A DNA stretch of 41,551 nt, from positions 1 to 41,551 of the forward strand of contig JBEKSI010000001.1 in assembly GCA_049997835.1 (NCBI GenBank), in the 5' to 3' direction. Under the pieces are notes generated by a model, which saw nothing but the letters and a program-made list of their open reading frames with translations, was not told the origin of the DNA and ran no database searches. The stretch comes from Minisyncoccia bacterium (GTDB taxonomy: Bacteria > Patescibacteriota > Minisyncoccia > UBA6257 > GWB1-50-10). Positions 1,490-36,225 of the stretch are shown here, in pieces. A program made the position numbers and the translations under genes. The first letter of the stretch is position 1; every line of letters begins with the position of its first letter.

Positions 1490-1505
1490 GTGTTAAAATA
1501 ATCAA

Positions 1506-2024
1506 ATGGCGAAAACATCAAAAGACGCGAGAAAACACATAGGAGCGCTAAGCGACCTATTTCGCGATTTTAATATGGTGGCTAACGTTGTTGTTGAAGA
1601 ATTTCTGCGCAAACAAAAAAAGAGAAAACATCTTAAGCAAAGCTTAAGGAGATTGGTCAAGAAAGGTTTTATTGCTGATACTGGTCAGGGGTATGAACTT
1701 ACCCATAAAGGGGAAAGGTTTTTTGGGAAATTTTCCAAAGAGGAAGATAAGCCAACGTTTTCCGGAATCTGGGACGGTAAATGGAGATTAGTGACTTTTG
1801 ATGTTCCATGTAAATTCGACACTAAACGTCAAAAAATAAGGTCTCTGTTGAAAGAATTTGATTTTTACCAGCTTCAGAAAAGCGTTTGGATCTGTCCGGC
1901 GTCTCTTTCGGAGAAATTTTTGGGGTTGATGATTAATGAAGAATTGGATGGATATTGTAAGGTTATGATTGTAGATGTGCTTGAGGGTGACGAAGAGTTG
2001 AAAAGGCACTTTAGGATCGCATAA
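1506..2024 (+). CDS. PaaX-family-like transcriptional regulator (winged HTH plus PaaX-type middle domain)
   Basis: LRRLVKKGFIADTGQGYELTHKGERF resembles a wHTH. WDGKWRLVTFDVPCKFDTKRQKIRSLLKEFDFYQLQKSVWICP matches the pattern I recall for PaaX-like repressors. TAAAAT at 1494-1499 lies 6 nt before the ATG. Confidence 0.6.
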   Translation: MAKTSKDARKHIGALSDLFRDFNMVANVVVEEFLRKQKKRKHLKQSLRRLVKKGFIADTGQGYELTHKGERFFGKFSKEEDKPTFSGIWDGKWRLVTFDVPCKFDTKRQKIRSLLKEFDFYQLQKSVWICPASLSEKFLGLMINEELDGYCKVMIVDVLEGDEELKRHFRIA

Positions 2025-2473: not shown

Positions 2474-2535
2474 AAGCATCTAAATCTAATAAGGGTAGAC
2501 TACATTTAATTCCGTAATAGAGCTAAAATTGAAAA

Positions 2536-3195
2536 ATGTCCAATTTTCCTGACGTTAATTCATCCGAAGAAGAAATTGTTACCTTTTGCCAGCAAGAAGC
2601 TGGCGGAAACCCAGGTGTAGGAGTCGGACATGAAATGCGCTTGAATTATGGGCTAAATTTATTAGCGCATAAACAGCAACAAAAACTACTCGCTAATCAA
2701 GACAATTCCAATCGTAATTTAATTTTCTGGACAAAGATTCTAGCCTTGACGACTATTGGCTTGGCAATGGTTACTGCTATTCTAGCTGGCATTACGTACC
2801 AATCCAGTCAACGTCAAATCACTTTAGAATTACTCCCTTCTGTAGAAGCAAATTACGATGCAGGTAGTGCCGTGATTAATGTCATAAATCGAGGCAGGGG
2901 GAACTTATACATTTGGGGGGATAAATTTGGAAACGGATCTCCTGTTATAGATAATTTTGGAGTGCTTTTTGGTCCCGGAAGCACCTTTCATATTCCAGTT
3001 GATAATTTAGAAATGACAGCAGCCATAAAATCTTCTATGCGGGATGCAACATCGACATTTATTAATTTTGAGATTTATTTTAAAAACCAAGACGAAACAA
3101 AATTTGTATCTAGAAACGCCCTCTCTATTTTTGAACACAATGGGACAACAGAAATCGATAGCCAAACTAGATCTATAGATCAAGTTGATTGGTAA
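2536..3195 (+). CDS. Hypothetical membrane-anchored protein
   Basis: 219-aa ORF with a central TM segment (ILALTTIGLAMVTAILAGI). TAAAAT at 2524-2529 lies 6 nt before the ATG. AT-rich codon usage. Confidence 0.5.
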   Translation: MSNFPDVNSSEEEIVTFCQQEAGGNPGVGVGHEMRLNYGLNLLAHKQQQKLLANQDNSNRNLIFWTKILALTTIGLAMVTAILAGITYQSSQRQITLELLPSVEANYDAGSAVINVINRGRGNLYIWGDKFGNGSPVIDNFGVLFGPGSTFHIPVDNLEMTAAIKSSMRDATSTFINFEIYFKNQDETKFVSRNALSIFEHNGTTEIDSQTRSIDQVDW

Positions 3196-3886: not shown

Positions 3887-3950
3887 CTACAAAATCTATC
3901 TATTAAGCAAAAACACCCACCTTACTAAGTGGGTATTTTTGTTTTATAAT
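3887..3950 (+). repeat. 64-nt direct repeat, copy 2
   Basis: CTACAAAATCTATCTATTAAGCAAAAACACCCACCTTACTAAGTGGGTATTTTTGTTTTATAAT. Its TATAAT (3945-3950) lies 8 nt before the ATG at 3959. Confidence 0.8.
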
Positions 3951-3958
3951 TTTAGAAA

Positions 3959-4597
3959 ATGAAGAACACCTATTTTCCACCAGAGTTTAAAAAAGGGCAG
4001 TTTACTTGTCCTTATTGTGGAGTTTTGGCAGATCAAACTTGGCAAGATATTGTTATGGCCTCTGTTACCAAAGAGTTTGATAAAATTTGGGTTTCACGTT
4101 GCACAAATAGAAATTGTCAACGTGAGTGTCTTTGGATCGGAGGTAAGATGGCTATTCCGGATATGGAAGGAGTTTCGTATCCAAATGAAGATTTAAATCA
4201 AGAAATCCAAGAAGATTATATGGAAGCTCGATCGATTTTATCTCGCTCACCTAGAGGTGCGGCAGCATTATTAAGACTTTCGATCCAGAAACTATGTAAG
4301 CAACTTAGAGAGTCAGGTAGAGATATTAATGCCGATATAGCTTCCTTAGTTAAAAAAGGACTCAGACCAAGCATACAAAAATCGTTAGACATTGTAAGAG
4401 TAACTGGCAATGAGTCAGTTCATCCTGGTGTTTTAGACATGAAGGATAATCGTGAAATTGCATTAAAATTATTTGATTTAGTCAATCTGATTGCAGATGT
4501 CATGATTTCTGAGCCTAAACGAGTTGACGAACTTTACGAGTCTGTTATTCCGGAGGGAAAGAAAAAAGCGATAGTAGAACGCGACACCCCCCATTAA
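3959..4597 (+). CDS. Zinc-ribbon plus DUF4145-like helical domain protein
   Basis: N-terminal CPYCG...CTNRNC cysteine pairs. The C-terminal region (AALLRLSIQKLCKQL ... IVRVTGNESVHPG) fits the R-x-x-G-N-x-x-x-H pattern I associate with DUF4145. Confidence 0.55.
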   Translation: MKNTYFPPEFKKGQFTCPYCGVLADQTWQDIVMASVTKEFDKIWVSRCTNRNCQRECLWIGGKMAIPDMEGVSYPNEDLNQEIQEDYMEARSILSRSPRGAAALLRLSIQKLCKQLRESGRDINADIASLVKKGLRPSIQKSLDIVRVTGNESVHPGVLDMKDNREIALKLFDLVNLIADVMISEPKRVDELYESVIPEGKKKAIVERDTPH

Positions 4598-4972
4598 ATG
4601 ACTGAATTTCTCAAAAAATATAAAAAAGGGTTAGTAATTATCGGCATCATTATATTCTTCATTATCACCCTGAGTTTATTAGGTGGTAATTCATCTATAT
4701 CAAATATTCCACAGTCTCAAAATACAAACTCGGCACAGATCACTAATATTCTCTCGCAGCCGACCAGCACTACTAGTAGCAATAGTAGCAATCTTTCAAA
4801 TAATAATACCTACGTAAACTCCGCAGGAAATACAGTTCACTCTCCGGCATATACAGAAAACGGAAGTGCTCCTACTAATGCCTCAGCGCAATGTCGAGAT
4901 GGGACGTATAGTTTCAGTCAAAGTCGAAGTGGTACCTGCTCACATCACGGCGGAGTAGCGAAGTGGCTATAA
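4598..4972 (+). CDS. DUF3761-like secreted/anchored protein
   Basis: N-terminal TM, an S/T/N-rich linker, and C-terminal CRDGTYSFSQSRSGTCSHHGGVAKWL. The ATG directly abuts the upstream stop. Confidence 0.6.
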   Translation: MTEFLKKYKKGLVIIGIIIFFIITLSLLGGNSSISNIPQSQNTNSAQITNILSQPTSTTSSNSSNLSNNNTYVNSAGNTVHSPAYTENGSAPTNASAQCRDGTYSFSQSRSGTCSHHGGVAKWL

Positions 4973-6095: not shown

Positions 6096-6459
6096 AAATA
6101 TTCTCTTCAAGCAACTCTTCCATATTTCCTTTTGTTTATCTAATAAAATAACAAGAGGTTTGAATTTTGTTGAGAAAACTGTCTCGCAGGCCGAGCGGGC
6201 AGGTGTCTGCCTACGGCAGACGAGCGAGGCCGAGAGCAAGTGCAAATTCCTCGCTGGGAAATTTGATAACGTGTTTTCGAAACGAAATTCAAACCCCGCA
6301 CACCAAACCCTACTGGTCTGAGAACGCGGGGAAGGACGCGAGTTTTTACATATCGCATTAGAGTTTTTGACAAAACCCGCCCAAAAGCTCTATTGTGAAC
6401 CCAGTTGTTTAGAAAATGATTTAGAAAACAAAATCACCTCTTGAGAGGAGGATTGTAAA

Positions 6460-6837
6460 ATGCTAAAAAAATCCGAGATTAAACCGGGCGTTATCTTATG
6501 CTGGGGGATAGATCACCCAATCAACAAATTCTCAATAGATTATTGGTCGGTTTTGGAAGTTGGTGAATTGTCTTTCAAGATTGAACTGTTGGGTGGAGTA
6601 AACGAGGTGAAAGAAATTCATTTTGATTCAGAGTTTTTCTCCCGCATGAAAATCTCCAATTCCGAGGAAGTATTTTTATCCTTTGTTAAAATGGAGAAAA
6701 AATTCGCTGAGGAAAGAATCGCAAAAAAGCGGGAACTGGAAGAATTTGAATCAAAATATCAGGAATTCCATGAAAAGGTAATGGAATTCAAGCGCAGGTT
6801 CAAACCTAATTCAAATCTCGCTTCGCAAGCGGCATAG
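6460..6837 (+). CDS. Hypothetical protein (charged, coiled-coil-like C-terminus)
   Basis: GAGGAGG lies 9 nt upstream of the ATG. TTGACA at 6366-6371 is a possible -35. A terminator follows. Confidence 0.5.
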   Translation: MLKKSEIKPGVILCWGIDHPINKFSIDYWSVLEVGELSFKIELLGGVNEVKEIHFDSEFFSRMKISNSEEVFLSFVKMEKKFAEERIAKKRELEEFESKYQEFHEKVMEFKRRFKPNSNLASQAA

Positions 6838-7404: not shown

Positions 7405-7419
7405 TGTTAGAATTAATGA

Positions 7420-7977
7420 ATGGATCCCGTTAGAAATAAGCCGCCCCAAGTGGCTGCCGCCATGCCTTCGGCAGGGCGGATTTCTAACGGGATGGAAATA
7501 ATCGCGGTGCTTCACAACGTCCGGAGTTTGCACAACGTCGGTTCCATGTTCAGAACGGCGGATGCGGCCGGCGTCTCAAAAATTTATCTCTGCGGCATCA
7601 CGCCCGCTCCGACAGACAGGTTTGGAAAAGTGATTCCGCAGCTTGCGAAGGTGGCGCTCGGCGCCGAAAAAACCGTGCCTTGGGAATCGGTGAAATCGCC
7701 GCAGGCCGTTTTAAAACTCATTAAAATTTTAAAGAAAGAGGGATATAAGATATTGGCCATTGAACAATCTGAAAAATCGATTCCATATTACCAACTAAAA
7801 GCTAAAAGCTCACAGCTAAAAGCTGTTTTAATAATGGGAAATGAGGTAAAGGGTCTGCCCAAAAGCATTCTTAAGAATGCCGATAAGATACTGGAAATCC
7901 CCATGCAGGGAGATAAAGAATCGCTGAATGTGAGCGTCGCTTTCGGTATCGTAATTTTTGGTTTATTATATAGATAA
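7420..7977 (+). CDS. SpoU/TrmH-family RNA 2'-O-methyltransferase
   Basis: HNVGSMFRTADAAGV, MGNEVKGL and IPMQG..ESLNVSVA motifs. TGtTAGAAT at 7405-7413 lies 6 nt before ATG 7420. An alternative start at 7492 (MEII...) would remove a 24-aa N-terminal extension. Confidence 0.8.
   Translation: MDPVRNKPPQVAAAMPSAGRISNGMEIIAVLHNVRSLHNVGSMFRTADAAGVSKIYLCGITPAPTDRFGKVIPQLAKVALGAEKTVPWESVKSPQAVLKLIKILKKEGYKILAIEQSEKSIPYYQLKAKSSQLKAVLIMGNEVKGLPKSILKNADKILEIPMQGDKESLNVSVAFGIVIFGLLYR
7424..7493 (+). other. 70-nt hairpin embedded in the first 24 codons of the SpoU ORF
   Basis: ATCCCGTTAGAAAT..CCGCCC (7424-7446) pairs with GGGCGGATTTCTAACGGGAT (7474-7493). There is an inner CTGCCG/CGGCAG stem. Confidence 0.8.
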
Positions 7978-8516: not shown

Positions 8517-8539
8517 TTTTTCGGATTTATAATTTACTT

Positions 8540-9556
8540 ATGGCTAAAGTTGCAATAAACGGTTTCGGGAGGATTGGGAGACTGTTTCTAAAACAAGCGC
8601 TCGGTCAAAAGGGATTGGATGTAGTCGCGATAAATGATTTGGGCGATATTGAAAATCTCGCCTATCTTTTAAAATACGACACGGTTTACGGAAGATATGA
8701 AAAAGAAGTGGAAGTGAGCGGTAAAAATCTTATCGTAGACGGCAAAAAAATTCTTTTTCTCCAAGAAAAAGACCCGGCGAAACTTCCGTGGAAAGAACTG
8801 AAAATTGACGTTGTGGTGGAGGCCACGGGCGTTTTTGAATCCTACGAAAAAGCAAAAGTTCATTTGGGTGCCGGCGCGAAGCGCGTCGTCATCACCGCCC
8901 CCGCCAAAGACGAGGACGGTTCTTTAGGCCGAACCGTTTTGATGGGCGTGAACGAAAAAGAAATAAAAACCTGCCCGATTACTTCAAACGGCTCCTGCAC
9001 GACGAACGCGGCCTCACCCGTCATTCAAATATTGTCGGATAACCCCGGAATAGAAAAGGCGATTTTGAATACCGTGCACGCCTACACGGCGACGCAGAGC
9101 ATTGTTGATGGCCCCGTAAAAGGCAAGGATTTCCGGCGCGGGCGCGCGGCGGCGCAGAATATCACGCCTTCCACGACCGGGGCGGCGATTGCCGTCACGC
9201 GGGCGCTCAGGGAAATGGAAGGGAAATTTGACGGTATCGCCATCCGCGTGCCGGTTCCGGGCGGCTCCATCGCCGACATTACTTTCATCTCAAAAAAGAA
9301 AACTTCGGTTGAGGAAATAAACGAAATTTTCCGGAAAGCGGAGAAAGACGCCAGATGGAAGGGAATTTTGAAGACGACCGAAGACCAGATTGTTTCCTCG
9401 GACATAATCGGCGAACCCTGGGGTGCGATTGTGGATCTGTCTTTCACGAAAGTGGTGGGCGGAAACCTGGTGAAGGTTTTGAGTTGGTACGACAATGAAG
9501 CGGGGTATGTTTCCACACTCATAAAGCACGTTAACGCCGCGATTGCGGCGCTTTAG
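8540..9556 (+). CDS. gap: Glyceraldehyde-3-phosphate dehydrogenase, type I
   Basis: INGFGRIGR, active-site SCTTN and WYDNEAGY. TATAAT at 8528-8533 lies 6 nt before the ATG. Confidence 0.95.
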   Translation: MAKVAINGFGRIGRLFLKQALGQKGLDVVAINDLGDIENLAYLLKYDTVYGRYEKEVEVSGKNLIVDGKKILFLQEKDPAKLPWKELKIDVVVEATGVFESYEKAKVHLGAGAKRVVITAPAKDEDGSLGRTVLMGVNEKEIKTCPITSNGSCTTNAASPVIQILSDNPGIEKAILNTVHAYTATQSIVDGPVKGKDFRRGRAAAQNITPSTTGAAIAVTRALREMEGKFDGIAIRVPVPGGSIADITFISKKKTSVEEINEIFRKAEKDARWKGILKTTEDQIVSSDIIGEPWGAIVDLSFTKVVGGNLVKVLSWYDNEAGYVSTLIKHVNAAIAAL

Positions 9557-9562: not shown

Positions 9563-10063
9563 ATGCTTATTTATATCGGCGCGGATCACCGCGGGTTTAA
9601 ATTGAAGGAAACACTGAAGAATTTTTTGAAGTTACGGGGATACCAGGTCGTTGATTTGGGCAATACGGTTTATGACGAAGGGGATGATAATCCGATTTTT
9701 GCCGCCAAGGTGGCCGAGCAGGTGAACGTGGATTCTGAAACATCGCGCGGGATTTTGATTTGTGGTTCGGGCGTGGGCGTGAGCATTGTCGCGAATAAAT
9801 TTCCCCACATTCGCGCGGCTTTGGCTTCCTCGCCCGACCAGGCGTATGACAGCCGAAAAGAAGATGATTCAAACATACTCGCGCTCGGCGCCAATTATCT
9901 GGACGATGAGACGGCGGAAAGAATAACGCTTACTTGGCTTGAAACGCCGTTTTCGGGGGAAGAAAGGTATCGCCGCAGATTGAGCGAAATAGACCAGATT
10001 GAGGAAACGAGGCCGGATAGCGATTCAAGCGAAAAAACCTCCAAAGATATTAACTGGCAATGA
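9563..10063 (+). CDS. rpiB: Ribose-5-phosphate isomerase B
   Basis: IGADHRGFKLKE and ILICGSGVGVSIVANKF. Ends with TGA. Confidence 0.9.
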   Translation: MLIYIGADHRGFKLKETLKNFLKLRGYQVVDLGNTVYDEGDDNPIFAAKVAEQVNVDSETSRGILICGSGVGVSIVANKFPHIRAALASSPDQAYDSRKEDDSNILALGANYLDDETAERITLTWLETPFSGEERYRRRLSEIDQIEETRPDSDSSEKTSKDINWQ

Positions 10064-10704: not shown

Positions 10705-10740
10705 TCTTCAAAAATGTAACATATGTTACATTTTTGAAGA
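10705..10740. repeat. 36-bp perfect palindrome (TCTTCAAAAATGTAACATATGTTACATTTTTGAAGA)
   Basis: Starts at the nucleotide after the rpe stop codon. It shares the CTTCAAAA/TTTTGAAG outer arms and the central CATATG with the 34-bp palindrome family. Confidence 0.9.
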
Positions 10741-10812
10741 CATGGGTTTTATGGTTTTTGGAGAATTTTGGCGAATTTTATGATTGCTGTATAATAAATT
10801 CAAATAATTTTT

Positions 10813-12426
10813 ATGAGGCGTTCCCGGTCAAAAAAATCCAAATTTATCTTCGTGACCGGGGGAACTGTCTCCGGATTGGGAAAAGGAGTGACGGTGGCAT
10901 CCATCGCCACTCTTTTAAAATCCAGAGGGATGGATGTTCTGCCCTTGAAAATGGACCCGTATTTGAATAAGGATGCGGGAACGATGAATCCTTATCAGCA
11001 CGGCGAGGTTTTCGTGACGGATGACGGCGCGGAGACGGATTTGGATTTGGGGCATTATGAGAGGTTCACGGGGCTGAATCTGACCCGGGATTCAAACTTC
11101 ACGACCGGAGCGGTGTATGAAGAAGTCATCCATCAAGAGCGTCAAGGAAATTTTCTGGGAAAGACGATTCAAATTATTCCGCACATCACGGATGAGATAA
11201 AAAGGAGAATTTTGGGCGCGGCTAAAAAACACAAAGCCGACGTTTGCATCGTGGAAATCGGCGGGACCGTGGGCGACATAGAAGCTGAACCGTTTTTGGA
11301 AACGGTCCGGCAAATAGTGAGGGAAGAAGGAAGCGAAAATGTGATTTTTGTCCATGTGGTGAAGATGGATTACATTTATCCCTCCGACGAAGCGAAAACT
11401 AAACCGATCCAACAGTCGGTTGCGATTTTCCGCGAGCGCGGAATCCAGCCGGATTTTCTCGTGGTGCGCTGCAAGCGGCCCATCACCAAGGAAAATTTTG
11501 AAAAAATATCGCTCTTCACGAATGTGCCGGAGAAAAGAATAATTCCGGCGTTGGATGTGGAGATTCTCTATGAAGTTCCGTTGAATTTCAAAAAATCTAA
11601 GTTTGACGACCATATTCTTGAACGACTGAATATTCGCGGTAAGAACCGAGACATGAGGAGATGGCAAAGAGTCGTTAATAAACTAAAGCAGGCGAAGAAA
11701 ACGGTTAAAATTGCTCTAGTTGGGAAGTACGTGGAAAATAGCGACGCTTACATATCCGTTGAAGAAGCGATAAAAACTGCGGCCGGCCACGCCGGAGCCA
11801 GAGCGGAAATCGTTCACGTTGAATCCGAAACCGAAGATGTTCTGAAAAAAATAAAGGATGCAGACGGCATCGTCGTCCCGGGCGGTTTTGGCAAACGCGG
11901 GATAGAAGGAAAAATAAAAGCCGTTCGCTTCGCCCGCGAAAATAATATCCCTCTGTTGGGGCTCTGCCTCGGCCTTCAGGTGGCTGTGATAGAGTTTGCG
12001 AGGAACGTATGCGGGATGAAGAACGCAAACAGCACGGAATTTGACCTAAAGACATCCTACCCGGTGATAGATATTCTACCGAGCCAGAAAGGCATAAAAG
12101 AAATGGGGGGCACGATGCGGCTGGGGAGCGCGGGCGCGTTTTTGGACAAAAATTCAAAAATAATCGCCTTGTACAAAAACAACAGGATTGCGGAGCGACA
12201 TCGCCATCGTTATGAAGTGAACCCGGAATTTCACGAAAAGCTTTTGAAAGGCGGGCTCGTGTTCAGCGGGATAAACACCGCGGACAAACGCATCGTGGAA
12301 TTCATTGAAATTCCGAAGCATAAATTTTTCGTGGCGACGCAAGCCCATCCGGAATTCAAATCCAGGTTCATGGAACCGCATCCGTTATTCCTTGGTTTAA
12401 TTAAAGCGGCTCTAAGTAAGGATTGA
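10813..12426 (+). CDS. pyrG: CTP synthase
   Basis: [14 protein letters not shown], the glutaminase GLCLGLQ motif and HRHRYEVN. Ends with TGA. Confidence 0.95.
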
Positions 12427-12449
12427 ATAAATAGGTTATAATTAACTTA

Positions 12450-13310
12450 ATGAAACCCATCCATGATGGACGGCTTGAATACTTAGAGGAATTGGCGAAT
12501 AAAATCCGCGAGAAGGTGATTGAGACGCTTTTGGAAGCCGGTTCGGGGCACTCGGCGGGACCGCTCGGAATGGCGGATATTTTTACCGCCTTTTATTTTC
12601 ACATTCTGAAGCATGACCCAAAAAAGCCGGATTGGCCGGAACGCGACCGGCTTGTGCTTTCAAACGGCCATATCTGCCCGGTTTTATATACTACATTGGC
12701 CTACGCCGGATATTTTCCGATTGAAGAATTGAAGACGCTGCGGAAACTGAATTCGCGCCTTCAGGGTCATCCGCACCGCTTGGCGCTTCCGGGGCTTGAA
12801 ACTACTTCAGGCCCTCTCGGTTCCGGGCTTTCGCAGGCGATTGGGATGGCGCTTACGGCGAAGCTGGATGGCAAGAAATACCGGGTGTATTGTCTGACTT
12901 CCGACGGCGAGCATGAGGAGGGGAATCACTGGGAAGCCGCGATGTTTGCCGGGAAAAATAAATTGAACAATCTTACCGTCGTCGTGGACCGGAACAATAT
13001 TCAGATAGACGGATTTACGGAGAACGTGATGCCGCTTGAACCGCTCAAGGCAAAATACGAAGCGTTCAACTGGCACGTGTTGGAAATTGACGGGCACAAT
13101 ATGCAGGATTTGGTGGACGCGATTTCGGAAGCCGAGGCGATTTACGAAAAGCCAACGGTTATAATCGCGCACACGATTCCCGGGAAGGGCGTGAGTTTCA
13201 TGGAACGGGATTTCCGCTGGCATGGTAAGCCGCCGAACAAGGAAGAGGCAAAAAAAGCGCTTCACGAACTGAGAACTTTGGGTCAGAGAATTAAAAGCGA
13301 ACACGAGTAA
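12450..13310 (+). CDS. tkt: Transketolase, N-terminal (TPP-binding) subunit
   Basis: SGHSAGPLGMADI and SDGEHEEGNHWEA. TATAAT at 12437-12442 lies 7 nt before the ATG. Confidence 0.9.
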   Translation: MKPIHDGRLEYLEELANKIREKVIETLLEAGSGHSAGPLGMADIFTAFYFHILKHDPKKPDWPERDRLVLSNGHICPVLYTTLAYAGYFPIEELKTLRKLNSRLQGHPHRLALPGLETTSGPLGSGLSQAIGMALTAKLDGKKYRVYCLTSDGEHEEGNHWEAAMFAGKNKLNNLTVVVDRNNIQIDGFTENVMPLEPLKAKYEAFNWHVLEIDGHNMQDLVDAISEAEAIYEKPTVIIAHTIPGKGVSFMERDFRWHGKPPNKEEAKKALHELRTLGQRIKSEHE

Positions 13311-13311
13311 T

Positions 13312-14301
13312 ATGTTAAACCCTGAATTAAAATTGAATCCCAGATTGTTCAACGAAGACGTTGAACAAAAACCAATCCGCGACGGATACGGCGACGGGCT
13401 GGTTTTGGCCGGCGAGGCGGATAAAAACGTGGTGGCGCTTTGCGCTGATTTAATTGAATCCACGCGGACGGAGGCCTTTGCGAAAAAATTTCCCGAGAGA
13501 TTTTTTGAAGTCGGGGTGGCTGAGCAAAATATGGCGACAATTGCGGCAGGTTTGGGCATTTCCGGTAAAATCCCATTTATCGCTTCTTACGCCACCTTCT
13601 CGCCGGGGCGGAATTATGAACAGATTCGCACAACGATTGCCTATAACGATTCCAACGTGAAAATCGCCGGTCATCACGCGGGCATTTCCGTGGGACCGGA
13701 TGGCGCGACGCACCAGGCGACGGAAGATATCGCGATAATGCGCGCGATGCCGAATATGTTGGTTTTCGTGCCGTGCGACGCGATTGAAGCGAAGAAAGCG
13801 ACGCTCGCCGCGGCGAAACTCTGGGGACCGGTATATTTAAGGTTCGCGAGAGAAAAATCGCCCGTGATTACGACGGAAGAAACGCCGTTTACGCCGGGTA
13901 AGGCGCAAATATTCTGGCAGTCAAAGAAGCCACAAGCGGTGATTATTGTCTGTGGTACACTCGTTTATAACGCGCTTCTCGCGGCCAAGGAGTTGGAGAA
14001 AGAAAAGATCGGCACGGTGGTTTTAAATAATGCCTCAATAAAGCCGTTGGATGAAAATATGATTTTGGATTTGGTCAAAAAATATCCCGCCGTCGTGACG
14101 GTGGAAGAACATCAGATCCACGGCGGATTGGGAGGGGCGGTAGCGGAACTCTTGGCAAAATACCGTCCGGCACCGATTGAATTTGTCGGGCTTAAAGACA
14201 CTTTCGGAGAATCCGGCGCGCCGGACGAACTTATAGAAAAATACGGCATGGGCGCGGATAATATAAAAGAGGCGGTAAAAAAGGTTTTAAAGAGAATTTA
14301 A
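13312..14301 (+). CDS. tkt: Transketolase, C-terminal (pyrimidine-binding) subunit
   Basis: FFEVGVAEQNM and ATHQATEDIAIMRAMPNM. Starts 1 nt after the stop of the N-terminal subunit gene. Confidence 0.9.
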   Translation: MLNPELKLNPRLFNEDVEQKPIRDGYGDGLVLAGEADKNVVALCADLIESTRTEAFAKKFPERFFEVGVAEQNMATIAAGLGISGKIPFIASYATFSPGRNYEQIRTTIAYNDSNVKIAGHHAGISVGPDGATHQATEDIAIMRAMPNMLVFVPCDAIEAKKATLAAAKLWGPVYLRFAREKSPVITTEETPFTPGKAQIFWQSKKPQAVIIVCGTLVYNALLAAKELEKEKIGTVVLNNASIKPLDENMILDLVKKYPAVVTVEEHQIHGGLGGAVAELLAKYRPAPIEFVGLKDTFGESGAPDELIEKYGMGADNIKEAVKKVLKRI

Positions 14302-15290
14302 TGTTTGACGTTATTACCATCGGTTCAGTGACGCGGGACGCTTTTTTTGAAGCGCCGAAATTCAAAACAATTCCGTGGAAAAAAACGCCTTCAAAAAAAG
14401 GGCTTATTTTGCCGCTTGGGGAGAAGCTTGAAGTGAATGACGTTTATTTCACGATTGGGGGAAATTCCGCGAACGCCGCCGTAACTTTCAGTCGGTTTGG
14501 TTTCAAGACGGCTTGCATCGGGAAGACGGGAGACGACCCTGGCGGCCGGGAAATCAGGCGGCGCCTGAACGCGGAAGGAGTAAACGCGAACTTACTTCTT
14601 AAGACAAGTAAGCTCGGGACGGCCTATTCAGTATTGCTTTTGAAGGACGGAGAAAGGACGATTTTAAGCTATCACGGTGCTTCCAATCTTTTTAATCTGA
14701 AAGACATTGATTTGAATAAGCTGAAAGCCAAGTGGTGGTATCTGTCGCTCGCGGGAGAATCCACGAAAATTTTCGGCGCTTTGCTTAATTTTGCGCGAAA
14801 GCACAAGATTGCGGTGGCGTTTAATCCGAGCGGTTATCATTTAAAGCATCATCGCCGGGATATTTTAAAGCGCTTAAAGAACATTTCGTTTTTAGTGTTA
14901 AATGAAGAAGAAGCGGCTATTCTTATCGGCTTACCGTTCTATAAAGAAAAGGAGGTTTTTAAAAAACTAGACGTGCTTATGCCGGGGATTCTCGCGGTTA
15001 CGAATGGCCGGAAGGGCGCGACGGTTTCCGACGGGAAATCGATTTACCGGGCGGGGATTTTCAAAGAGAGAAAATTAGCGGATAGGACGGGAGCAGGTGA
15101 CGCGTTCGGTTCCGGGTTTGTGGCGGGCTTGATGCAAAAAAACGACATTAATTTCGCGTTGCGTCTCGCTTCCGCGAACGCTACCTCCGCGGTGGAGAAA
15201 ATCGGAGCGACGGAGGGAGTGCTTACGAAACGTGAATTTGAAAATCCCAGATGGCGAAATTTCAGAATAAGCGTCAAAAAAATATCATGA
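14301..15290 (+). CDS. PfkB-family carbohydrate kinase (ribokinase-like)
   Basis: C-terminal DRTGAGDAFGSGFVAGL signature. Overlaps the tkt stop by 1 nt. Confidence 0.8.
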   Translation: MFDVITIGSVTRDAFFEAPKFKTIPWKKTPSKKGLILPLGEKLEVNDVYFTIGGNSANAAVTFSRFGFKTACIGKTGDDPGGREIRRRLNAEGVNANLLLKTSKLGTAYSVLLLKDGERTILSYHGASNLFNLKDIDLNKLKAKWWYLSLAGESTKIFGALLNFARKHKIAVAFNPSGYHLKHHRRDILKRLKNISFLVLNEEEAAILIGLPFYKEKEVFKKLDVLMPGILAVTNGRKGATVSDGKSIYRAGIFKERKLADRTGAGDAFGSGFVAGLMQKNDINFALRLASANATSAVEKIGATEGVLTKREFENPRWRNFRISVKKIS

Positions 15291-16540
15291 TTGCCACCGA
15301 ACGTATCGCCAAAATTTTAAGAGCCGACAGGGGTTTTTTGGAAAAAATCGACAGACATCTTTCAATTATAACCGGCAAAACCGGCGTGATGGGAAAAATC
15401 CTGAAGGAGAACGACAATCTCGTTAAGGGCCATCTCCTTAAATTGGGAGTGGCGGAAGACGCTACCGCGAAGGAAGTTTATGACGCGCTGATTTCCAAAA
15501 TTGAAGCCGACAATCATCTTATTTTTGAGGCGCTGGGCCAGCCCTGTCTCACTGCTAAAAGCGACTGCACGCGGGTTTTGGAAGTGGTGAAAAAAGTGGC
15601 CGGCGTGAATCACGGATTTTTTCTGCGCAAGGAAAAAGCCATTGAGTTTCTGAATAACCAGCCGCCACTCAAGGTGATGAAATGCCTGGGTTATGGATCG
15701 GTCGGCGAGATGCTGGAGAAGGAAGATTTATTTGAAATCTACAGCGCGTTGCGTTTCGTTGAGGGAAACGAATGGCTGAACGACGTGTTTTTCAAGCAAT
15801 ACGAGAATCTGAAACCCGGGGATTTTGAGAAGCGGGAAATTGTGGTGCGCGCCCTGCCGGAAAAATGGGCGGCCATTGCCGCGCCTTTCGTGGAAAGAAA
15901 GTGGCACAATATCAGCCATTTAAAAGAAATGGGGGTGGTTTTCGTGATTCCCGTATCGCTTGGAATTTCAGGCGAGCTTTTGAGGATGATAGGATTGGTT
16001 TTTCATTATCTCCACGAAATTCCTTTTTATTCGGAACTCTTCCTGAAGAGCGTGGAATTTCCCGAAACATTTGCGGCCAATATTATTTCTTTTCTGCGGG
16101 GCGACATTCTTGACCGGCGTTTGCAGGAAGGCGAGAAAACTTTATGGCTTGTGGTCCAGCGCTATCTCGCGAAAGATGACGAGAACGACTGGCGGCTTTT
16201 CGCGCCGCATATAAATCCGGAGGCGATCCACTGGGTAAAAGCGGGGGAAGACGTTTTGCGGCTCGGCGAGGCGTTGGACGGAAAGAGCGTGGACTTGAGT
16301 TTCTGGGCGGGTTTAGATTGGGCGGGCGACTATTTCAAGGACGAGATCGGGAACGACACGCTCGTGAGCTTCAACTTGGTGGATACCGTGATGAGTTTAG
16401 TAAAGGAAAAAGACATGATTAAGTATCTTTATCATCACGAAGAAGCGCTTTGGAACCAGATTTTCGCCGAATATTTCAGCTTTGACGAACTGGAAAAATT
16501 CGCGAAGGAATATCTGCTTCAGGGATATTTTGAGATATGA
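15287..16540 (+). CDS. Hypothetical protein, no recognised family (about 417 aa)
   Basis: Long ORF. I prefer ATG 15287 (ATGA overlap with the kinase stop) over the track start at 15251. The 3' end has a 4-nt overlap with the next gene. Confidence 0.6.
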   Translation: MIATERIAKILRADRGFLEKIDRHLSIITGKTGVMGKILKENDNLVKGHLLKLGVAEDATAKEVYDALISKIEADNHLIFEALGQPCLTAKSDCTRVLEVVKKVAGVNHGFFLRKEKAIEFLNNQPPLKVMKCLGYGSVGEMLEKEDLFEIYSALRFVEGNEWLNDVFFKQYENLKPGDFEKREIVVRALPEKWAAIAAPFVERKWHNISHLKEMGVVFVIPVSLGISGELLRMIGLVFHYLHEIPFYSELFLKSVEFPETFAANIISFLRGDILDRRLQEGEKTLWLVVQRYLAKDDENDWRLFAPHINPEAIHWVKAGEDVLRLGEALDGKSVDLSFWAGLDWAGDYFKDEIGNDTLVSFNLVDTVMSLVKEKDMIKYLYHHEEALWNQIFAEYFSFDELEKFAKEYLLQGYFEI

Positions 16541-16938
16541 GCTTGGTCGGTGCGTTACTGATTGTTCTGGCTTCGGGTTTGATTATTGGTTGGCTTTTGG
16601 AGTTTTTATACAGAAGTTTGGAAAGAGGGAAGATTACAAAACCGTTATTTATCAATGAGCAGATGTATGTATTTACTGCGCTATTTTCATACTTCTTGTA
16701 TGTTATGGATATTCAACTGGTTTTTGTGATTTTATGTCTATTCTTATTTACCACGGGGATTGAATTTATCACGGGATATCTGGCACTGAAATTAGGGGGT
16801 GTCCGTTTGTGGGATTATTCAGAATATCCGTACGATTATAAGGGAATTGTTTGTCTGGAATTTTCCGTCATTTGGCTTGGTATAGCGTTGGTTTATTATT
16901 ATTTCGTTCTTCCTTTTCTTGTTGGGTATATAATATAA
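16537..16938 (+). CDS. Small multi-pass membrane protein (possibly the PF06541-like putative ABC-transporter type IV family)
   Basis: Four hydrophobic segments. The GIEFITGYLALKLGGVRLWDYS pattern gives only a weak family call. Confidence 0.45.
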   Translation: MSLVGALLIVLASGLIIGWLLEFLYRSLERGKITKPLFINEQMYVFTALFSYFLYVMDIQLVFVILCLFLFTTGIEFITGYLALKLGGVRLWDYSEYPYDYKGIVCLEFSVIWLGIALVYYYFVLPFLVGYII

Positions 16939-16942
16939 AAAT

Positions 16943-17833
16943 ATGAGAAGTTTAAAACAGGCTATAAAAAACGCGGAGAAGGGAAAAATCGCGATTGGGC
17001 ATTTTAATATTTCCAATCTGGAACAATTGAAGGCGATTGCGGAGGCGGTGCGGAAATTAAATTTGCCGGTGATTATCGGTGTTTCCGAAGGCGAGCGGGA
17101 ATATATCGGCGTAAATCAGGTGAAAGATTTAATTGACGGGTACAATAAGGAATTTGGAGGCAATTCCGGCTTTTGGCTGTTTTTAAACGCCGACCATACC
17201 CATTCTTTGGATAAAGTGCAAGAAGCGGCGGCGGCAAACTTTGATGAGATTCTTTTTGACGGAGGTAAATTATTGCTTGAAGAAAATATAAAACAAACTA
17301 AACAGGCGCTTAAAATTGCGAAGCCGGGATTAAAACTTTGGAGGAAGAATATTTTAATTGAGGGTGAGCTTGGATATATCGGGAGCGCTTCGGAGATAAG
17401 GAAAGAAATCCCGGAAGGAGCGGCGATAAAGCCGGAGGATCTGACTAAACCGGAAGAAGCCGCTCAGTTTGTAAAAGAAACCGGCGTGGATTTGCTCGCG
17501 CCGGCCGTGGGGAATATACACGGGATGTACGCGAACATATCAGACCCAGCACTGGATATTGAACGCATCCGCGCCATAAAGAAAGCGGTAAAAATACCGC
17601 TGGTGCTCCACGGCGCATCCGGAAATACTGAAAGCGATCTGCTCGCGGCAATTGATGCCGGCATTTCCATAATCCACATTTCCACGGAGCTCCGGGCCGC
17701 TTGGCGCGAGGGTCTGGAAAAGGACTTAAAAGAAAAGCCGGACGAAGTTGCTCCCTATAAACTTACCCCGGACGCGATTAAGAAAACGGAAGAGATTGTT
17801 GAGAGAAAATTAAGATTATTCAATAAATTGTAG
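16943..17833 (+). CDS. fba: Class II fructose-bisphosphate aldolase
   Basis: GHFNISNLEQ, ADHTHS, LVLHGASG and IHISTEL. TATAAT at 16929-16934 lies 8 nt before the ATG. Confidence 0.9.
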   Translation: MRSLKQAIKNAEKGKIAIGHFNISNLEQLKAIAEAVRKLNLPVIIGVSEGEREYIGVNQVKDLIDGYNKEFGGNSGFWLFLNADHTHSLDKVQEAAAANFDEILFDGGKLLLEENIKQTKQALKIAKPGLKLWRKNILIEGELGYIGSASEIRKEIPEGAAIKPEDLTKPEEAAQFVKETGVDLLAPAVGNIHGMYANISDPALDIERIRAIKKAVKIPLVLHGASGNTESDLLAAIDAGISIIHISTELRAAWREGLEKDLKEKPDEVAPYKLTPDAIKKTEEIVERKLRLFNKL

Positions 17834-17845: not shown

Positions 17846-17879
17846 CTTCAAAATTTATCCATATGGATAAATTTTGAAG
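17846..17879. repeat. 34-bp perfect palindrome, copy 3 (identical to 1456-1489)
   Basis: CTTCAAAATTTATCCATATGGATAAATTTTGAAG lies 12 nt after the fba stop, followed by GCGCCTTTTTC. Confidence 0.95.
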
Positions 17880-17931: not shown

Positions 17932-18663
17932 ATGGAGTCACAAAATATCAATAAAATAATTTTGGAAGTCCGAGCCGGGACGGGCGGGGACGAGGCCTCG
18001 CTTTTTGCCGGCGACTTGGTGCGGATGTATCAGAAGTATTCCCAGAAAAAAGGATGGAATTTTTCCATTCTTGACGCGAGCGAAAGCGGCGCGAAGGGAT
18101 ATAAAACATTGGTTGCCGAAGTAGCCGGTACGGGAGTTTATGGCGCCTTAAAACAGGAATCCGGCGTGCATCGCGTACAAAGGGTTCCCGAAACTGAGCG
18201 GCAGGGAAGAATTCATACTTCAACGGCCTCAGTCGCGGTTCTGCCGGTCGTGGAGGCGAAAGCGGTGGATATAAAAGACAGCGATTTGGAAGTGACTTTT
18301 TCCCGCGCGGGCGGCCCCGGCGGGCAGAACGTAAATAACGTTGAAACGGCAGTGAGAATCACGCACAAGCCGACGGGTATCGTGGTTTCATGCCGGATGG
18401 AACGTTCACAGCATGCGAATCGCGAAAAGGCGATGGAAATGCTCCGTTCAATACTTTTTAACGAAGCCCAGCGCCAATCGGTTGGTTCTATATCAGAACT
18501 CCGGAACAACCAAATTGGTTCGGGTGACCGTTCCGAAAAGATACGCACTTATAATTTCCCCGATGACCGGATAACGGACCATCGCATTGGAAAAAAGTGG
18601 CACAACATAGAAAAAATTCTTGAGGGAGATTTTGAGCCCATAGTAAAAGCCTTCGCGAAGTAA
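17932..18663 (+). CDS. prfA: Class I peptide chain release factor of RF1 type, lacking N-terminal domain 1
   Basis: [36 protein letters not shown] and [23 protein letters not shown]. Only 243 aa. There is an in-frame TAA three codons upstream of the ATG. Confidence 0.85.
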
Positions 18664-18858: not shown

Positions 18859-20250
18859 TTACTTCCCGTTCAACGTATCAATATCGTCTTGGAATTTATC
18901 CGCTTGGTCCACGACTGGCTGGCCATACCAAAAGCGATAAGTGTACCAACTCGCGCCTGCGTAATATTTTGCCGCGGCGCAACGCTCAATAAGGGTTTGA
19001 TAGGGAAGGGACGCGGATTTGTTCGCGGTCGCGTAGTTTACGCAGGTTGCGGATTGTTCCAAATCTTTAATGTAAAGGCCGGTTGCCGCGAAGGCATCGG
19101 AATTATTCCACGGGTTGGCTGGGGTATTGCCAGTCACTTTTGAAATAGCGTCGGAATAGAGTTTCCAGGTGGAAGGAATGAATTGGGCCGGACCCATGGC
19201 GCCGCCGTAGGAGCCGTGCTGGTTGGCGCAGGAAACGTAGACGGATTGAGAATCCGGGTCTATTCCAAGTTTGCTTAAAAGATTTAAAAATATGGGCTTG
19301 TCGCGCGTCGGATTCATGGCCGTTTTGTAGGAGCAACGTCCGACATTCTTACCGAGCAACGATTCCCTGTTCAGAATCGCAAGGATGATTGCGGAACGCA
19401 CCCCGGTCGCTCCCTCGGCCAATTTGGCGTAATCATACGCTTTAGCGAAAGTGAGTTCGCCGCCGCCCAGAAGTTCAAAGATGCGGCTTCGGATTTGGGC
19501 CGCCGTAGCTTTATCTTTAGTAAGGATTTTTTGGTATTCCGATTCCTTACCTTTTGTTTCTTTCAGGAGGGTGGTTTTTTGACTTTGTGTATTCTTTAAA
19601 GCTTTCTGCTGGGCCTGCTGGATCGCTTTGAAATTTTCCGTGTCGGTTTTCTCGCTTGAAAGTTCCTGTTTCTGGTCAAGGAGTTGCTGGCGGAGCTTGG
19701 TAATTTCTTCAAGCGAAGTCCGGAGGCCGCCTTGGACTAGCGCGATATCATTCAAGCTTCCGAAGAAATCCGATAGGTTGTTGTTGGAGAGCAGAATCGC
19801 CGTGAGTGTTTCACGATCAGATTCGTAGATTAATCTCAGTGATTTTGATATCGCGTCCTTGTGGGTTGTAATCTGGTCCTCGGTTTGGTTTATCTGCCCT
19901 TGAGTGCTTTTTATTTCTCCGTCCAACTGCGTGATTTCAAGATTAACGGCTTTAATTTGAAGATTTAGTTTGTTGACTTGGGCGTTTAACGTACTTATTT
20001 GACTGCTTAAGGTTTTTCCTTGTTTTTGATATTCGGTAATGGTTGCCTGGTTTTGTTCAATTTGTTTTTCCAAATCCGAAAGCTGCTGTTCCAGAGCGGC
20101 TCTTTCTTCCTGAGCTTTCTGGGCCGCCGAAGGGGTGCTGGTCGCCGTGCTGCTTGAGGTGGAACTTGAGTTGTCGGCTCGCGCGGAATACCCGCCCATT
20201 ATGATTAAACAGAAAGAAAAAAGAGCGATTATTTGCGTAATCCGCTTCAT
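18859..20250 (-). CDS. Secreted coiled-coil protein with a C-terminal lytic transglycosylase-like (SLT_2/MltB-like) domain
   Basis: A signal-like N-terminus and a long Q/E/K/L-rich heptad region. The C-terminal GAMGPAQFIPSTW motif is typical of MltB-type transglycosylases. Confidence 0.6.
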   Translation of the reverse strand: MKRITQIIALFSFCLIIMGGYSARADNSSSTSSSTATSTPSAAQKAQEERAALEQQLSDLEKQIEQNQATITEYQKQGKTLSSQISTLNAQVNKLNLQIKAVNLEITQLDGEIKSTQGQINQTEDQITTHKDAISKSLRLIYESDRETLTAILLSNNNLSDFFGSLNDIALVQGGLRTSLEEITKLRQQLLDQKQELSSEKTDTENFKAIQQAQQKALKNTQSQKTTLLKETKGKESEYQKILTKDKATAAQIRSRIFELLGGGELTFAKAYDYAKLAEGATGVRSAIILAILNRESLLGKNVGRCSYKTAMNPTRDKPIFLNLLSKLGIDPDSQSVYVSCANQHGSYGGAMGPAQFIPSTWKLYSDAISKVTGNTPANPWNNSDAFAATGLYIKDLEQSATCVNYATANKSASLPYQTLIERCAAAKYYAGASWYTYRFWYGQPVVDQADKFQDDIDTLNGK

Positions 20251-20271
20251 TTATATCCATAATAACACAAA

Positions 20272-20972: not shown

Positions 20973-21230
20973 TTATTTCTTCTTATTTTTGGAAATCCGG
21001 GTTTTTTTGGCGGATACGGTTTTTACTCCGGCTTTCTCGCGGCGCGCCTTGAATTTTTCCACGCGTCCGGCGGTATCTATCAATTGTTCGCGTCCCGTGT
21101 AGAACGGGTGGCATTTACTGCAGATTTCCACTTTGATTTCGGGTACGGCCGAACCCACGGTAAAAGCATTGCCGCAGGCGCAGGAGACCTTCGTTTTCTC
21201 GTGATATTTAGGATGGATGTCTTTTTTCAT
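20973..21230 (-). CDS. rpmE: Ribosomal protein L31
   Basis: [10 protein letters not shown]...CACGN...[10 protein letters not shown]. Confidence 0.9.
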
Positions 21231-21267
21231 GAGTTTGTGAGAGTTATAATAGCAAGGCTTTTGGGGA

Positions 21268-21295
21268 TTGACAAGTCGTGGGGGTTTTATATACT
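21268..21295 (+). promoter_or_regulatory. Candidate sigma70-type promoter for the 16S rRNA gene
   Basis: TTGACA (21268-21273), a 16-nt spacer, then TATACT (21290-21295). It lies about 250 nt upstream of the mature 16S 5' end. Confidence 0.5.
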
Positions 21296-21541: not shown

Positions 21542-23025
<1,484 letters not shown>

Positions 23026-23115: not shown

Positions 23116-23267
23116 ATGTCTTTATCTTTGCGCTTTCCGCCACCGGCTGTCGGCGCGCTCCTGCGGCGCGCCGCAGCCTACACTCTCGGCACAAAAGTCC
23201 GACTTTTAGTCGGACACCAAGCTTTTGTGCCTCCGAGAGTTGTCGTCAAACGCAAAGATAAAGACAT
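23116..23267. repeat. 152-nt element with 17-bp perfect terminal inverted repeats and a GC-rich interior holding two hairpins
   Basis: ATGTCTTTATCTTTGCG (23116-23132) pairs with CGCAAAGATAAAGACAT (23251-23267). Inner hairpins are at 23145-23178 and 23182-23240. Confidence 0.85.
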
Positions 23268-23334
23268 CTTATGGAGAAGGACGAAGAATAATTACATTTT
23301 TTGTTTTTTCTCCTATTTTTGTTAATATTTAGGT

Positions 23335-23712
23335 ATGGAAGGGATAAAGAAAATTCTATTGGTTGAAGACGAGCCGATGCTTTCCAATCTGCTCCGTCAG
23401 CGGCTGGAGAGGGAGAATTTCCAGGTTACGACGGCTCACGATGGCGCCGAGGCGGTCAAGATTTTAAAACAGGAAAAACCGGACCTTATTCTTCTGGATA
23501 TCATCCTTCCCAAGATGTCCGGATTTGAGGTGATGGAAGCAATGAGGGGCGATCCTTCCATCCAAGCCGCGCCGGTAGTGGTCGTTTCAAACTTGGGGCA
23601 GGAAAGCGACGTGGAGCACGGGCAGAGCTTGGGGGCGGTTGGATATTTCGTTAAAGCTCAGATGTCCATTGAGGATCTGGTTTCTAAAATAAGAGAGTTT
23701 TTGCTACAATAA
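23335..23712 (+). CDS. Stand-alone response regulator receiver domain (CheY-like)
   Basis: ILLVEDEP, DLILLDIILPKMSGFEV, SNLG and GYFVK. TAATAT at 23323-23328 lies 6 nt before the ATG. Confidence 0.9.
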   Translation: MEGIKKILLVEDEPMLSNLLRQRLERENFQVTTAHDGAEAVKILKQEKPDLILLDIILPKMSGFEVMEAMRGDPSIQAAPVVVVSNLGQESDVEHGQSLGAVGYFVKAQMSIEDLVSKIREFLLQ

Positions 23713-23718
23713 ACGAAT

Positions 23719-24291
23719 ATGAAAAAAGGTTTTACATTAATTGAACTTCTCGTTGTCATCGCAATTCTTGCCGTCTTAGCCACGGCCGTCGTTTTGGTTT
23801 TGAATCCCGCCGAGCTTTTGAAACAGGGGAGGGACTCCACTCGCGTTTCCGACATGGCGGCCTTGAACAGCGCCATATCGCTTTGGACTGCGGATGTTTT
23901 GAATGGCACTTGGGCTGCCAGCACGAAATGCACATCTTCCGTCACCGCGCCAGCCGGGGTTTTCACTACCGCTTGCACTGTATCAACTTCCACCGTTACT
24001 ACCGGCACTGGTTGGGTGGCTTTGAATTTCGGTTCCATTGCCGCCGGTTCGCCTCTTTCAAAATTGCCGATGGATCCGAATAACGGTTCCACGAATTGCA
24101 GTGCTGGCACTCCGGCTGTTTGTGAATACGCGATTAATATGAGCAGCACGACAGGCATTTATAAATTGGCCACCCAAATGGAGAGCGCGAAGTTTCGGGC
24201 GGGCGGTAGCGCGGATGCCACATCCAACACCAAGGACGGAGGCACCAGTGATAGTTGGTACGAGGTTGGAAGCAACCTGACGGCGTGGTAA
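23719..24291 (+). CDS. Type IV pilin-like protein (prepilin N-terminal methylation motif), paralog 1
   Basis: MKKGFTLIELLVVIAILAVLA. TGcTACAAT at 23702-23710 lies 8 nt before the ATG. Confidence 0.9.
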   Translation: MKKGFTLIELLVVIAILAVLATAVVLVLNPAELLKQGRDSTRVSDMAALNSAISLWTADVLNGTWAASTKCTSSVTAPAGVFTTACTVSTSTVTTGTGWVALNFGSIAAGSPLSKLPMDPNNGSTNCSAGTPAVCEYAINMSSTTGIYKLATQMESAKFRAGGSADATSNTKDGGTSDSWYEVGSNLTAW

Positions 24292-24330
24292 TTTAACCTC
24301 ATTTTAAGTAGTTGTGGTATAATTAAAAAA

Positions 24331-24947: not shown

Positions 24948-24970
24948 TTCATATCCGTTATAATTAGATT

Positions 24971-26692: not shown

Positions 26693-26709
26693 GCTAAAAT
26701 TAAAATAAT

Positions 26710-29396: not shown

Positions 29397-29420
29397 TTAC
29401 GTGCTATAATGTAAAAAATA

Positions 29421-34073: not shown

Positions 34074-34143
34074 ATCATGCGATATATTTCATGTGACAGT
34101 TTTTAGGATTTTGTGGATAAAAGCAACTTGCTATAATTAAAAC

Positions 34144-34707: not shown

Positions 34708-34708
34708 C

Positions 34709-34780: not shown

Positions 34781-34781
34781 C

Positions 34782-35203: not shown

Positions 35204-35222
35204 CCTGTGTTATAATTCCTTC

Positions 35223-36209: not shown

Positions 36210-36225
36210 ATAATATGTTTAATAT

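Follow-up and report, generated by a model that had tools for sequence, protein, structure and literature searches.

How does translation begin at genes whose start codons follow a -10 promoter hexamer by only 6-8 nucleotides (nt)? This question is raised by a 41,551-nt stretch of DNA from a Minisyncoccia bacterium (assembly GCA_049997835.1, contig JBEKSI010000001.1, positions 1 to 41,551; hereafter the window), in which an earlier note had pointed out TATAAT-like boxes at this distance before many start codons and had proposed widespread leaderless mRNAs. We found that the boxes occur far more often than expected by chance, that the pattern recurs in related Parcubacteria, and that the 16S rRNA gene of the window lacks the anti-Shine-Dalgarno (anti-SD) sequence. 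Most mRNAs probably begin at the AUG, i.e., they would be leaderless transcripts made from sigma-70-type boxes.

Boxes before start codons

All 17 TATAAT-like hexamers named in the earlier note were found in place, each with its start codon. Fifteen of them end 6-8 nt before the start and the other two 10 and 11 nt before it, and the Shine-Dalgarno (SD) words GGAG, GAGG and AGGA occurred in none of the 17 spacers, as had been claimed. The extended -10 element TGn, which had been reported for several sites, precedes 10 of the 17 boxes. The hexamer is TATAAT at nine sites and TAAAAT at three, with TAGAAT, TAATAT, TACAAT, GATAAT and TATTAT at one site each. The sites are given below with the hexamer (preceded by TGn where present), the spacer, the start codon and the gene.

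1494-1508 (+): TGt-TAAAAT, 6 nt, ATG, PaaX/Cas2-like winged helix-turn-helix gene
2524-2538 (+): TAAAAT, 6 nt, ATG, hypothetical protein of 219 amino acids (aa)
3945-3961 (+): TATAAT, 8 nt, ATG, DUF4145 protein
7408-7422 (+): TGt-TAGAAT, 6 nt, ATG, SpoU methylase
8528-8542 (+): TATAAT, 6 nt, ATG, GAPDH (MAKVAING...)
12437-12452 (+): TATAAT, 7 nt, ATG, transketolase N-terminal half
16929-16945 (+): TATAAT, 8 nt, ATG, class II fructose-bisphosphate aldolase (FBA)
20248-20264 (-): TGt-TATTAT, 8 nt, ATG, SLT-domain protein
23323-23337 (+): TGt-TAATAT, 6 nt, ATG, response regulator
23705-23721 (+): TGc-TACAAT, 8 nt, ATG, pilin (MKKGFTLI), box inside the upstream open reading frame (ORF)
24318-24333 (+): TGg-TATAAT, 7 nt, ATG, second pilin
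24959-24973 (+): TATAAT, 6 nt, GTG, PilB ATPase
26695-26712 (+): TAAAAT, 9 nt, ATG (26710), PilC
29405-29423 (+): TGc-TATAAT, 10 nt, ATG, 1550-aa protein, where the leader would be about 3 nt
34132-34146 (+): TGc-TATAAT, 6 nt, ATG, cupredoxin-like protein
35211-35225 (+): TGt-TATAAT, 6 nt, ATG, FKBP isomerase
36209-36228 (+): TGt-GATAAT, 11 nt, ATG, 248-aa hypothetical protein
38351-38365 (+): TAAAAT, 6 nt, ATG, PCMT methyltransferase

The PilC box was absent from the earlier list, and so was a further TAAAAT located 11 nt before the start at 5454. All 17 listed starts open long ORFs. Matches to Pfam profiles begin at residue 3 in GAPDH, FBA and PCMT, at residue 2 in the pilins (N_methyl) and at residue 7 in the response regulator, and both pilins show the leader MKKG/FTLIE at the called starts. 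Orthologues of PilB begin at the same residue as the GTG at 24971 (MINL...) with ATG, and one related locus (L004) likewise has GTG.

The surroundings of several boxes leave little space upstream. GAPDH (ATG at 8540) is separated from its upstream gene by 23 nt, and the FBA box lies within the 3' end of an upstream ORF whose stop codon is 4 nt 5' of the ATG. A terminator-like hairpin with a T-run (3915-3934) stands directly 5' of the DUF4145 box, and on the minus strand a 15-bp terminator-like hairpin (20304-20271) ends 6 nt from the box of the SLT-domain gene. Since such hairpins end a few nt before several boxes, there is no room for a leader.

For the count against chance, a box was required to match TATAAT at no fewer than five of six positions with A2 and T6 fixed and to end 6-8 nt before the start of a gene of at least 100 aa. 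This was the case for 14 of the 39 such genes in the window. When the last 20, 30 or 60 nt were dinucleotide-shuffled, the mean number of genes with a box was 2.3, 2.0 and 1.1, respectively, and the highest count in 2000 shuffles was 8. Among 1031 ATGs that are not gene starts, only 18 (1.7%) carry a box at this distance (Fisher P = 2e-13 against gene starts). Furthermore, the spacer histogram of the window has one peak only, at 6-8 nt, with its mode at exactly 6 nt.

The pattern was replicated in 80 related Parcubacteria loci (1.14 Mb, 963 ORFs of at least 100 aa), all taken from around the same L25 region. The spacers of -10-like hexamers numbered 68, 47 and 53 at 6, 7 and 8 nt, with about 5-10 per position as background. 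A scan of both strands that makes no use of gene calls found 379 matches to TGnTAnA[A/C]T. An ATG stood at offset 6, 7 or 8 from them in 34, 38 and 31 cases, respectively (background 3-6); 91 of the ATGs following this motif open ORFs of at least 50 codons. GTG and TTG were not enriched after the 379 matches. In orthologues of transketolase-N (nine promoters), PilB, the response regulator and the aldolase, the box was retained at 6-9 nt although the flanks had diverged. In a few relatives the same gene abuts an upstream stop codon instead. Spacers of 9-11 nt were somewhat enriched as well.

16S rRNA tail and Shine-Dalgarno motifs

The earlier note had overlooked a second feature of the window, namely that its 16S rRNA lacks an anti-SD.

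21544-23025 (+): 16S rRNA gene, unlinked to the 23S gene
23012-23025 (+): 16S 3' tail, GGAATTATTAAATT instead of GGATCACCTCCTTA; CCUCC absent

Helix 45 is intact and is followed by GGAAUUAUUAAAUU where E. coli has GGAUCACCUCCUUA. Of the relatives, 20 had a 16S gene whose 3' end could be read, and CCUCC was absent from the tail in all 20. An anti-SD hidden behind an insertion was considered and rejected, as CACCTCC or ACCTCCT was found in none of these 16S genes (window and 20 relatives) up to 300 nt past helix 45. A bare CCTCC does occur within 300 nt downstream in the window and five relatives, at positions that are not conserved. With a 16S tail that lacks CCUCC, SD pairing is unavailable.

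The relatives have a replacement tail in common, GGAUYAAUUAAAYUU. Conservation of this AU-only tail implies some constraint on it. No mRNA motif complementary to the conserved tail was found in loci L004-L074 or with the window tail (23012-23025).

Homologues of L25 and 16S place the window in the Parcubacteria (Patescibacteria, Candidate Phyla Radiation, CPR), with a best 16S identity of 94.4%. The nearest relatives are metagenome-assembled genomes (MAGs) of Minisyncoccia/Paceibacterota and of Candidatus Jorgensen-, Lipton-, Harrison-, Wolfe- and Colwellbacteria. In most relatives the 16S gene likewise has L31 and L25 as neighbours, and the contig is therefore no chimera. The 23S gene begins at 39385 (39385-41551 in the window), 16 kb from the 16S gene, with protein genes, including pilus genes, and two tRNAs in between. 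In several relatives the 16S gene carries insertions, and BLAST matches are split around query position 1353/1354.

SD words before genes were as rare as expected by chance. Where absence of the anti-SD from the 16S had been verified (20 loci), 3.2% of the genes had GGAG or GAGG 5-10 nt upstream, which equals chance, and no SD peak was seen over the clade loci as a whole. Applied to a broader set of CPR contigs (L082-L201, from metagenomes, with the 3' half of tRNA-Thr in common), the same test gave a clear SD peak at 5-7 nt, with 22, 27 and 13 occurrences against about 3. The test is thus able to detect SD motifs where they are present. In the broader sample the SD peak at 5-7 nt occurs alongside a -10 peak at 6-8 nt before genes, and in view of both peaks leaderless promoters may extend beyond the anti-SD-less clade. 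Single metagenome loci could not be sorted into an SD type and a leaderless type, as the genes per locus are too few.

Proposed leaderless initiation and its alternatives

The boxes have the properties of promoters. When the sites of the relatives were aligned on the hexamer, T occupied position -15 in 64% and G position -14 in 59%. TGn preceded 43% of the start-proximal boxes and 7% of all -10-like hexamers, a 6-fold difference (P = 6e-37). Within the hexamer T1, A2 and T6 are fixed and position 3 is variable. By their sequence, the boxes match sigma-70 extended -10 promoters, with TG at -15/-14, TAnnnT and a weak or absent -35 element. Similar elements precede the RNA genes of the window, in which each rRNA gene has a strong -35/-10 promoter of its own. 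At tRNA genes the box is TATACT or TAAGAT, and 9 nt separate it from the mature 5' end.

21268-21295 (+): 16S promoter, TTGACA-16-TATACT, full sigma-70 type
37553-37561 (+): TGt-TAAGAT box, 9 nt before the mature 5' end of tRNA-Trp (37571)
39090-39117 (+): 23S promoter, TTGACG-16-TGnTATAAT

The mechanism that we propose would start with a sigma-70-type RNA polymerase recognizing TGnTATAAT, in most cases an extended -10 promoter whose -35 element is weak. Counted from the hexamer, transcription would begin 7-9 nt downstream at a purine; where the spacer has its modal length of 6 nt, this purine is the A of the ATG. The start would thus fall on the A of the start codon or 1-2 nt before it, leaving no leader or one of at most 2 nt. 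In E. coli, according to what has reportedly been seen in MASTER data, spacers of 6, 7 and 8 nt give the three most used start positions after the -10 element. The ribosome would then load directly onto the 5'-terminal AUG without SD pairing. Such loading would be a necessity because the lineage has exchanged the 16S anti-SD for an AU-only tail, with which SD pairing is impossible. Overlapping genes and genes that abut a stop codon would be translated by termination-reinitiation, whereas genes more than about 6 nt from their neighbour would tend to have a box of their own, even if it falls within the 3' end of the preceding ORF. The proposal of leaderless mRNAs in the earlier note is therefore supported, as far as sequence can tell, by the anti-SD-less 16S, SD words at chance level, a promoter-type box, ATG enrichment after it and abutting hairpins.

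Several observations speak against so general a picture. The -35 signal is weak, with only T at -35 standing out (48%). The boxes at 16929 and 23705 lie within upstream coding sequence. At five sites (29405, 36209, PilC 26710, 5454 and tRNA-Trp) the spacer is 9-11 nt, from which leaders of 2-4 nt would result, and for at least three genes (L31, L33 and CTP synthase) the position of the box implies an SD-less leader of about 10 nt:

21228-21274 (-): L31 promoter TTGTCA-17-TGcTATTAT, then 15 nt without an SD, ATG (21230)
37260-37288 (+): L33 (ATG 37286), -10 box 15-17 nt 5' of the ATG
10790-10815 (+): CTP synthase (pyrG, ATG 10813), -10 box 15-17 nt 5' of the ATG

The L31 arrangement, including the -35 TTGTCA, is conserved in relatives. 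From these three SD-less leaders it follows that a second, unexplained mode of initiation must exist. Another adverse point is that near-perfect SD words (GAGGAGG or AAGGAGGT) stand at canonical spacing before two hypothetical ORFs:

6447-6462 and 37933-37951: SD-like word and start (6460 and 37949) of hypothetical ORFs of 125 and 95 aa, no Pfam match

Use of an SD by these two ORFs was rejected: with GGAGG present 50 times on the plus strand, chance alone should produce about 0.5 such placements, and we take the words as coincidental or the ORFs as doubtful. Alternatively, they may be recently acquired foreign genes. Furthermore, the gene calls in the relatives were crude, with the start set at the first ATG of each ORF, and the window is a single one from one genome, in which a second 16S copy or rRNA operon with an anti-SD may lie elsewhere.

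One alternative accepts the boxes as real promoters and holds that the annotated starts are wrong or that transcription begins elsewhere, so that the mRNAs have short leaders and initiation depends on them. The ~10-nt leaders of L31, L33 and CTP synthase and the moderate enrichment of 9-11-nt spacers agree with it. We consider it very unlikely, as the starts are fixed by in-frame upstream stop codons together with homology, and orthologues share the N-termini; the Rossmann motif of GAPDH begins at residue 3, and the pilins have the leader MKKG/FTLIE. Moreover, the mode lies at exactly 6 nt, where a transcription start site canonically follows a -10 element, and the enrichment after the box concerns ATG and not GTG or TTG.

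A different view takes the AT-rich box as a non-SD ribosome binding site on leadered mRNAs, which pairs with the AU-rich 16S tail or binds S1, similar to GeneMarkS-2 group B. AUUAU in the window tail is indeed complementary to AUAAU of TATAAT, a spacing of 6-8 nt is likewise typical of ribosome binding sites, and such a site would also be expected in the 23-nt gaps and upstream ORFs in which several boxes lie. At 5-7 nt before ATG there is even a small rise in five-nt words complementary to the tail. This rise is accounted for by TATAATT itself, and no enrichment of tail-complementary words was seen downstream of the AUG. TGnTATAAT stays unchanged in loci whose 16S tails differ (CAAUUAAAUU, CAUUUUAUUA, UAAUUCGUUU, CAUGUAUAUU and CUAAUUCAAUU), no covariation of box and tail was detected across loci with different tails, and the enriched T at -15 and G at -14 are unable to pair with the tail. 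A ribosome binding site should also occur before overlapping or abutting genes, yet in the relatives the box precedes only 2-4% of the genes with a gap of at most 5 nt to the upstream gene, as compared with 20-31% at larger gaps. Similar boxes stand before tRNA and rRNA genes, and genes without a box show no positional motif. We therefore regard a ribosome binding site as very unlikely.

That the pattern is a chance product of AT-rich intergenic DNA, in which -10-like hexamers are common (8945 on both strands of 1.1 Mb of related loci), is practically excluded, being already refuted by the shuffles, of which that of the last 20 nt preserves local composition, by the relatives' histogram and by the scan free of gene calls, and being at odds also with the sharp positional peak, its recurrence in 80 other genomes and the conservation of the box in orthologous promoters.

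Remaining genes and known systems

Apart from the genes with a box, others appear to be coupled through stop/start junctions, and one ORF abuts a tRNA. Genes of the window were divided into separated ones (at least 14 nt from the neighbour or divergently transcribed, n = 24) and close-packed ones (at most 7 nt, n = 16). Among the separated genes, 13 have a box at 6-8 nt and four at 9-11 nt (5454, 26710, 29421 and 36226), three have an SD-less leader of about 10 nt, one abuts a tRNA (34782) and three give no clear signal. Of the 16 close-packed genes only those at 16943 and 23719 have a box, and each of these two boxes lies within the ORF upstream. The signal is thus concentrated on first genes (13/24 against 2/16), as in GeneMarkS-2 group C. 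Stop/start junctions that would allow reinitiation are found at the following positions.

4595-4600 (+): TAAATG stop/start junction, coupled gene
10060-10063 (+): ATGA overlap
13308-13314 (+): TAAtATG junction between the two transketolase halves
14299-14303 (+): TAATG overlap
15287-15290 (+): ATGA overlap, start as called on the source contig
16537-16540 (+): ATGA overlap
27916-27920 (+): TGATG overlap, PilC to pilin-like gene

The transketolase is split into separate N- and C-terminal genes (12450-14301) with TAAtATG between them.

The tRNA-abutting gene points to a third possible route.

34709-34784 (+): tRNA-Thr (34709-34780, discriminator at 34780), one C, then ATG 34782 of a DUF192 gene

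This tRNA itself starts 1 nt after the stop codon of an upstream ORF (34705-34784 for the whole arrangement). In the clade loci, an ATG that opens at least 60 codons lies 0-4 nt past seven of 23 tRNAs (expected 0.41, P = 1e-7). Arrangements of this kind were noted in L004, L005, L029, L036, L081 and L083-L200. A metagenome scan anchored on the 3' half of tRNA-Thr found an ORF 1-3 nt past the discriminator in 14 of 119 copies. A junction from tRNA-Thr to an alanyl-tRNA-synthetase-like gene (MRSSEIRKKFLE...) is conserved in many metagenome contigs, with varying linker bases. The broader metagenome sample contained 155 other tRNAs, of which only 5 had an ORF at 0-4 nt; about 2.8 are expected, and the difference is not significant. 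Tight tRNA-ORF junctions were thus rejected as a general feature and look specific to certain clades or junctions. A SecE gene after tRNA-Trp was also considered; there is no such ORF, and a hairpin is found there instead. The arrangement at tRNA-Thr suggests that 3' processing of the tRNA could release near-leaderless mRNAs, as in mitochondria.

The uniform geometry that the earlier note had called striking is in fact already published as the hallmark of leaderless transcription in bacteria. GeneMarkS-2 group C, which is common in Actinobacteria and Deinococcus-Thermus, is defined by a Pribnow box located 6-8 nt upstream of the start codon (PMC6028130), and leaderless mRNAs are documented in Mycobacterium tuberculosis and Deinococcus deserti (PMC3898074, PMC4007540). 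Because this geometry has been published, the leaderless system proposed here is of a known kind. The window resembles group C in having the box 6-8 nt before the first genes of operons, with no SD in between and across many transcription units, and probably in the use of a 5'-terminal AUG. It differs in that group C retains the anti-SD and uses SD motifs for internal and leadered genes, whereas neither is present here; internal genes appear to rely on stop/start overlap, and the promoters are AT-rich extended -10 elements.

Loss of the anti-SD in a subgroup of Parcubacteria was described by Tsurumaki et al. (2022, RNA 28:1041), who called its significance unclear; the word leaderless occurs zero times in their paper (PMC9297842). 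A tail without CCUCCU is shared by that subgroup with the window and its relatives from Jorgensen-, Lipton-, Harrison- and Wolfebacteria. The rplK-rplA region, which bears on an overlap with the group lacking uL1, does not lie within the window. The promoter and start geometry, the conserved replacement tail and the coupling pattern go beyond that work and come from the present analysis.

Bacteroidetes (group B) are similar in that SD motifs are rare before genes. They keep the anti-SD, however, and have leadered mRNAs with an A-rich motif before all genes including internal ones, whereas the motif found here is a -10 box that is nearly absent before overlapping internal genes, so the window does not belong to group B. 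Mitochondria are similar in having rRNA without an anti-SD, leaderless mRNAs (predicted in the present case) and an ORF 1 nt after a tRNA (34782 in the window). Unlike in mitochondria, most 5' ends would here come from individual promoters, and a minority of the tRNAs abut ORFs.

Our search turned up no publication that connects leaderless initiation with Parcubacteria or Patescibacteria, which is weak evidence as subscription journals were outside its reach. What appears to be new is the lineage and the completeness of the system, i.e., the use of neither anti-SD nor SD, while the leaderless geometry itself is known. A wider proposal, which we put forward tentatively and regard as possible rather than probable, is that the whole lineage (the Jorgensen-, Wolfe-, Lipton- and Harrisonbacteria side) has abandoned SD-dependent initiation, with a conserved AU-only tail in place of the anti-SD, and retains only three routes: leaderless mRNAs from extended -10 promoters, termination-reinitiation, and leaderless mRNAs released by tRNA 3' processing.

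If leaderless initiation is correct, it would explain how anti-SD-less Parcubacteria start translation, the point left unclear in 2022, and would reveal a free-living-style bacterial translation system resembling that of mitochondria and some archaea. Start codons and operons in these MAGs, which are abundant in groundwater and soil, would then be better predicted with a leaderless-promoter model than with an SD model. The genes and coordinates given above can be compared directly with metatranscriptomic 5'-end data.

Some other features of the window were noted. A long and very stable hairpin (23116-23268) lies between the 16S and response-regulator genes; its minimum free energy is -83 kcal/mol (201 nt) with a z-score of -7.3, it matches no Rfam family and it overlaps a doubtful 69-aa ORF. 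A perfect AT-rich palindrome of 34 nt (CTTCAAAATTTATCCATATGGATAAATTTTGAAG) occurs at 1456-1489, 2032-2065 and 17846-17879, three copies where none is expected, with a variant at 10705-10740. Two copies flank the PaaX/Cas2-like winged-helix gene, and the copy at 1456-1489 ends 4 nt before the -10 box. The palindrome could serve the PaaX/Cas2-like regulator as an operator, act as a terminator in both directions or be a small repeat element. Finally, the peptide chain release factor encoded at 17932-18663 (243 aa) matches Pfam PCRF at profile positions 98-194 only and, by its sequence, appears to lack the N-terminal domain 1; its orthologues in relatives begin at the same residue.

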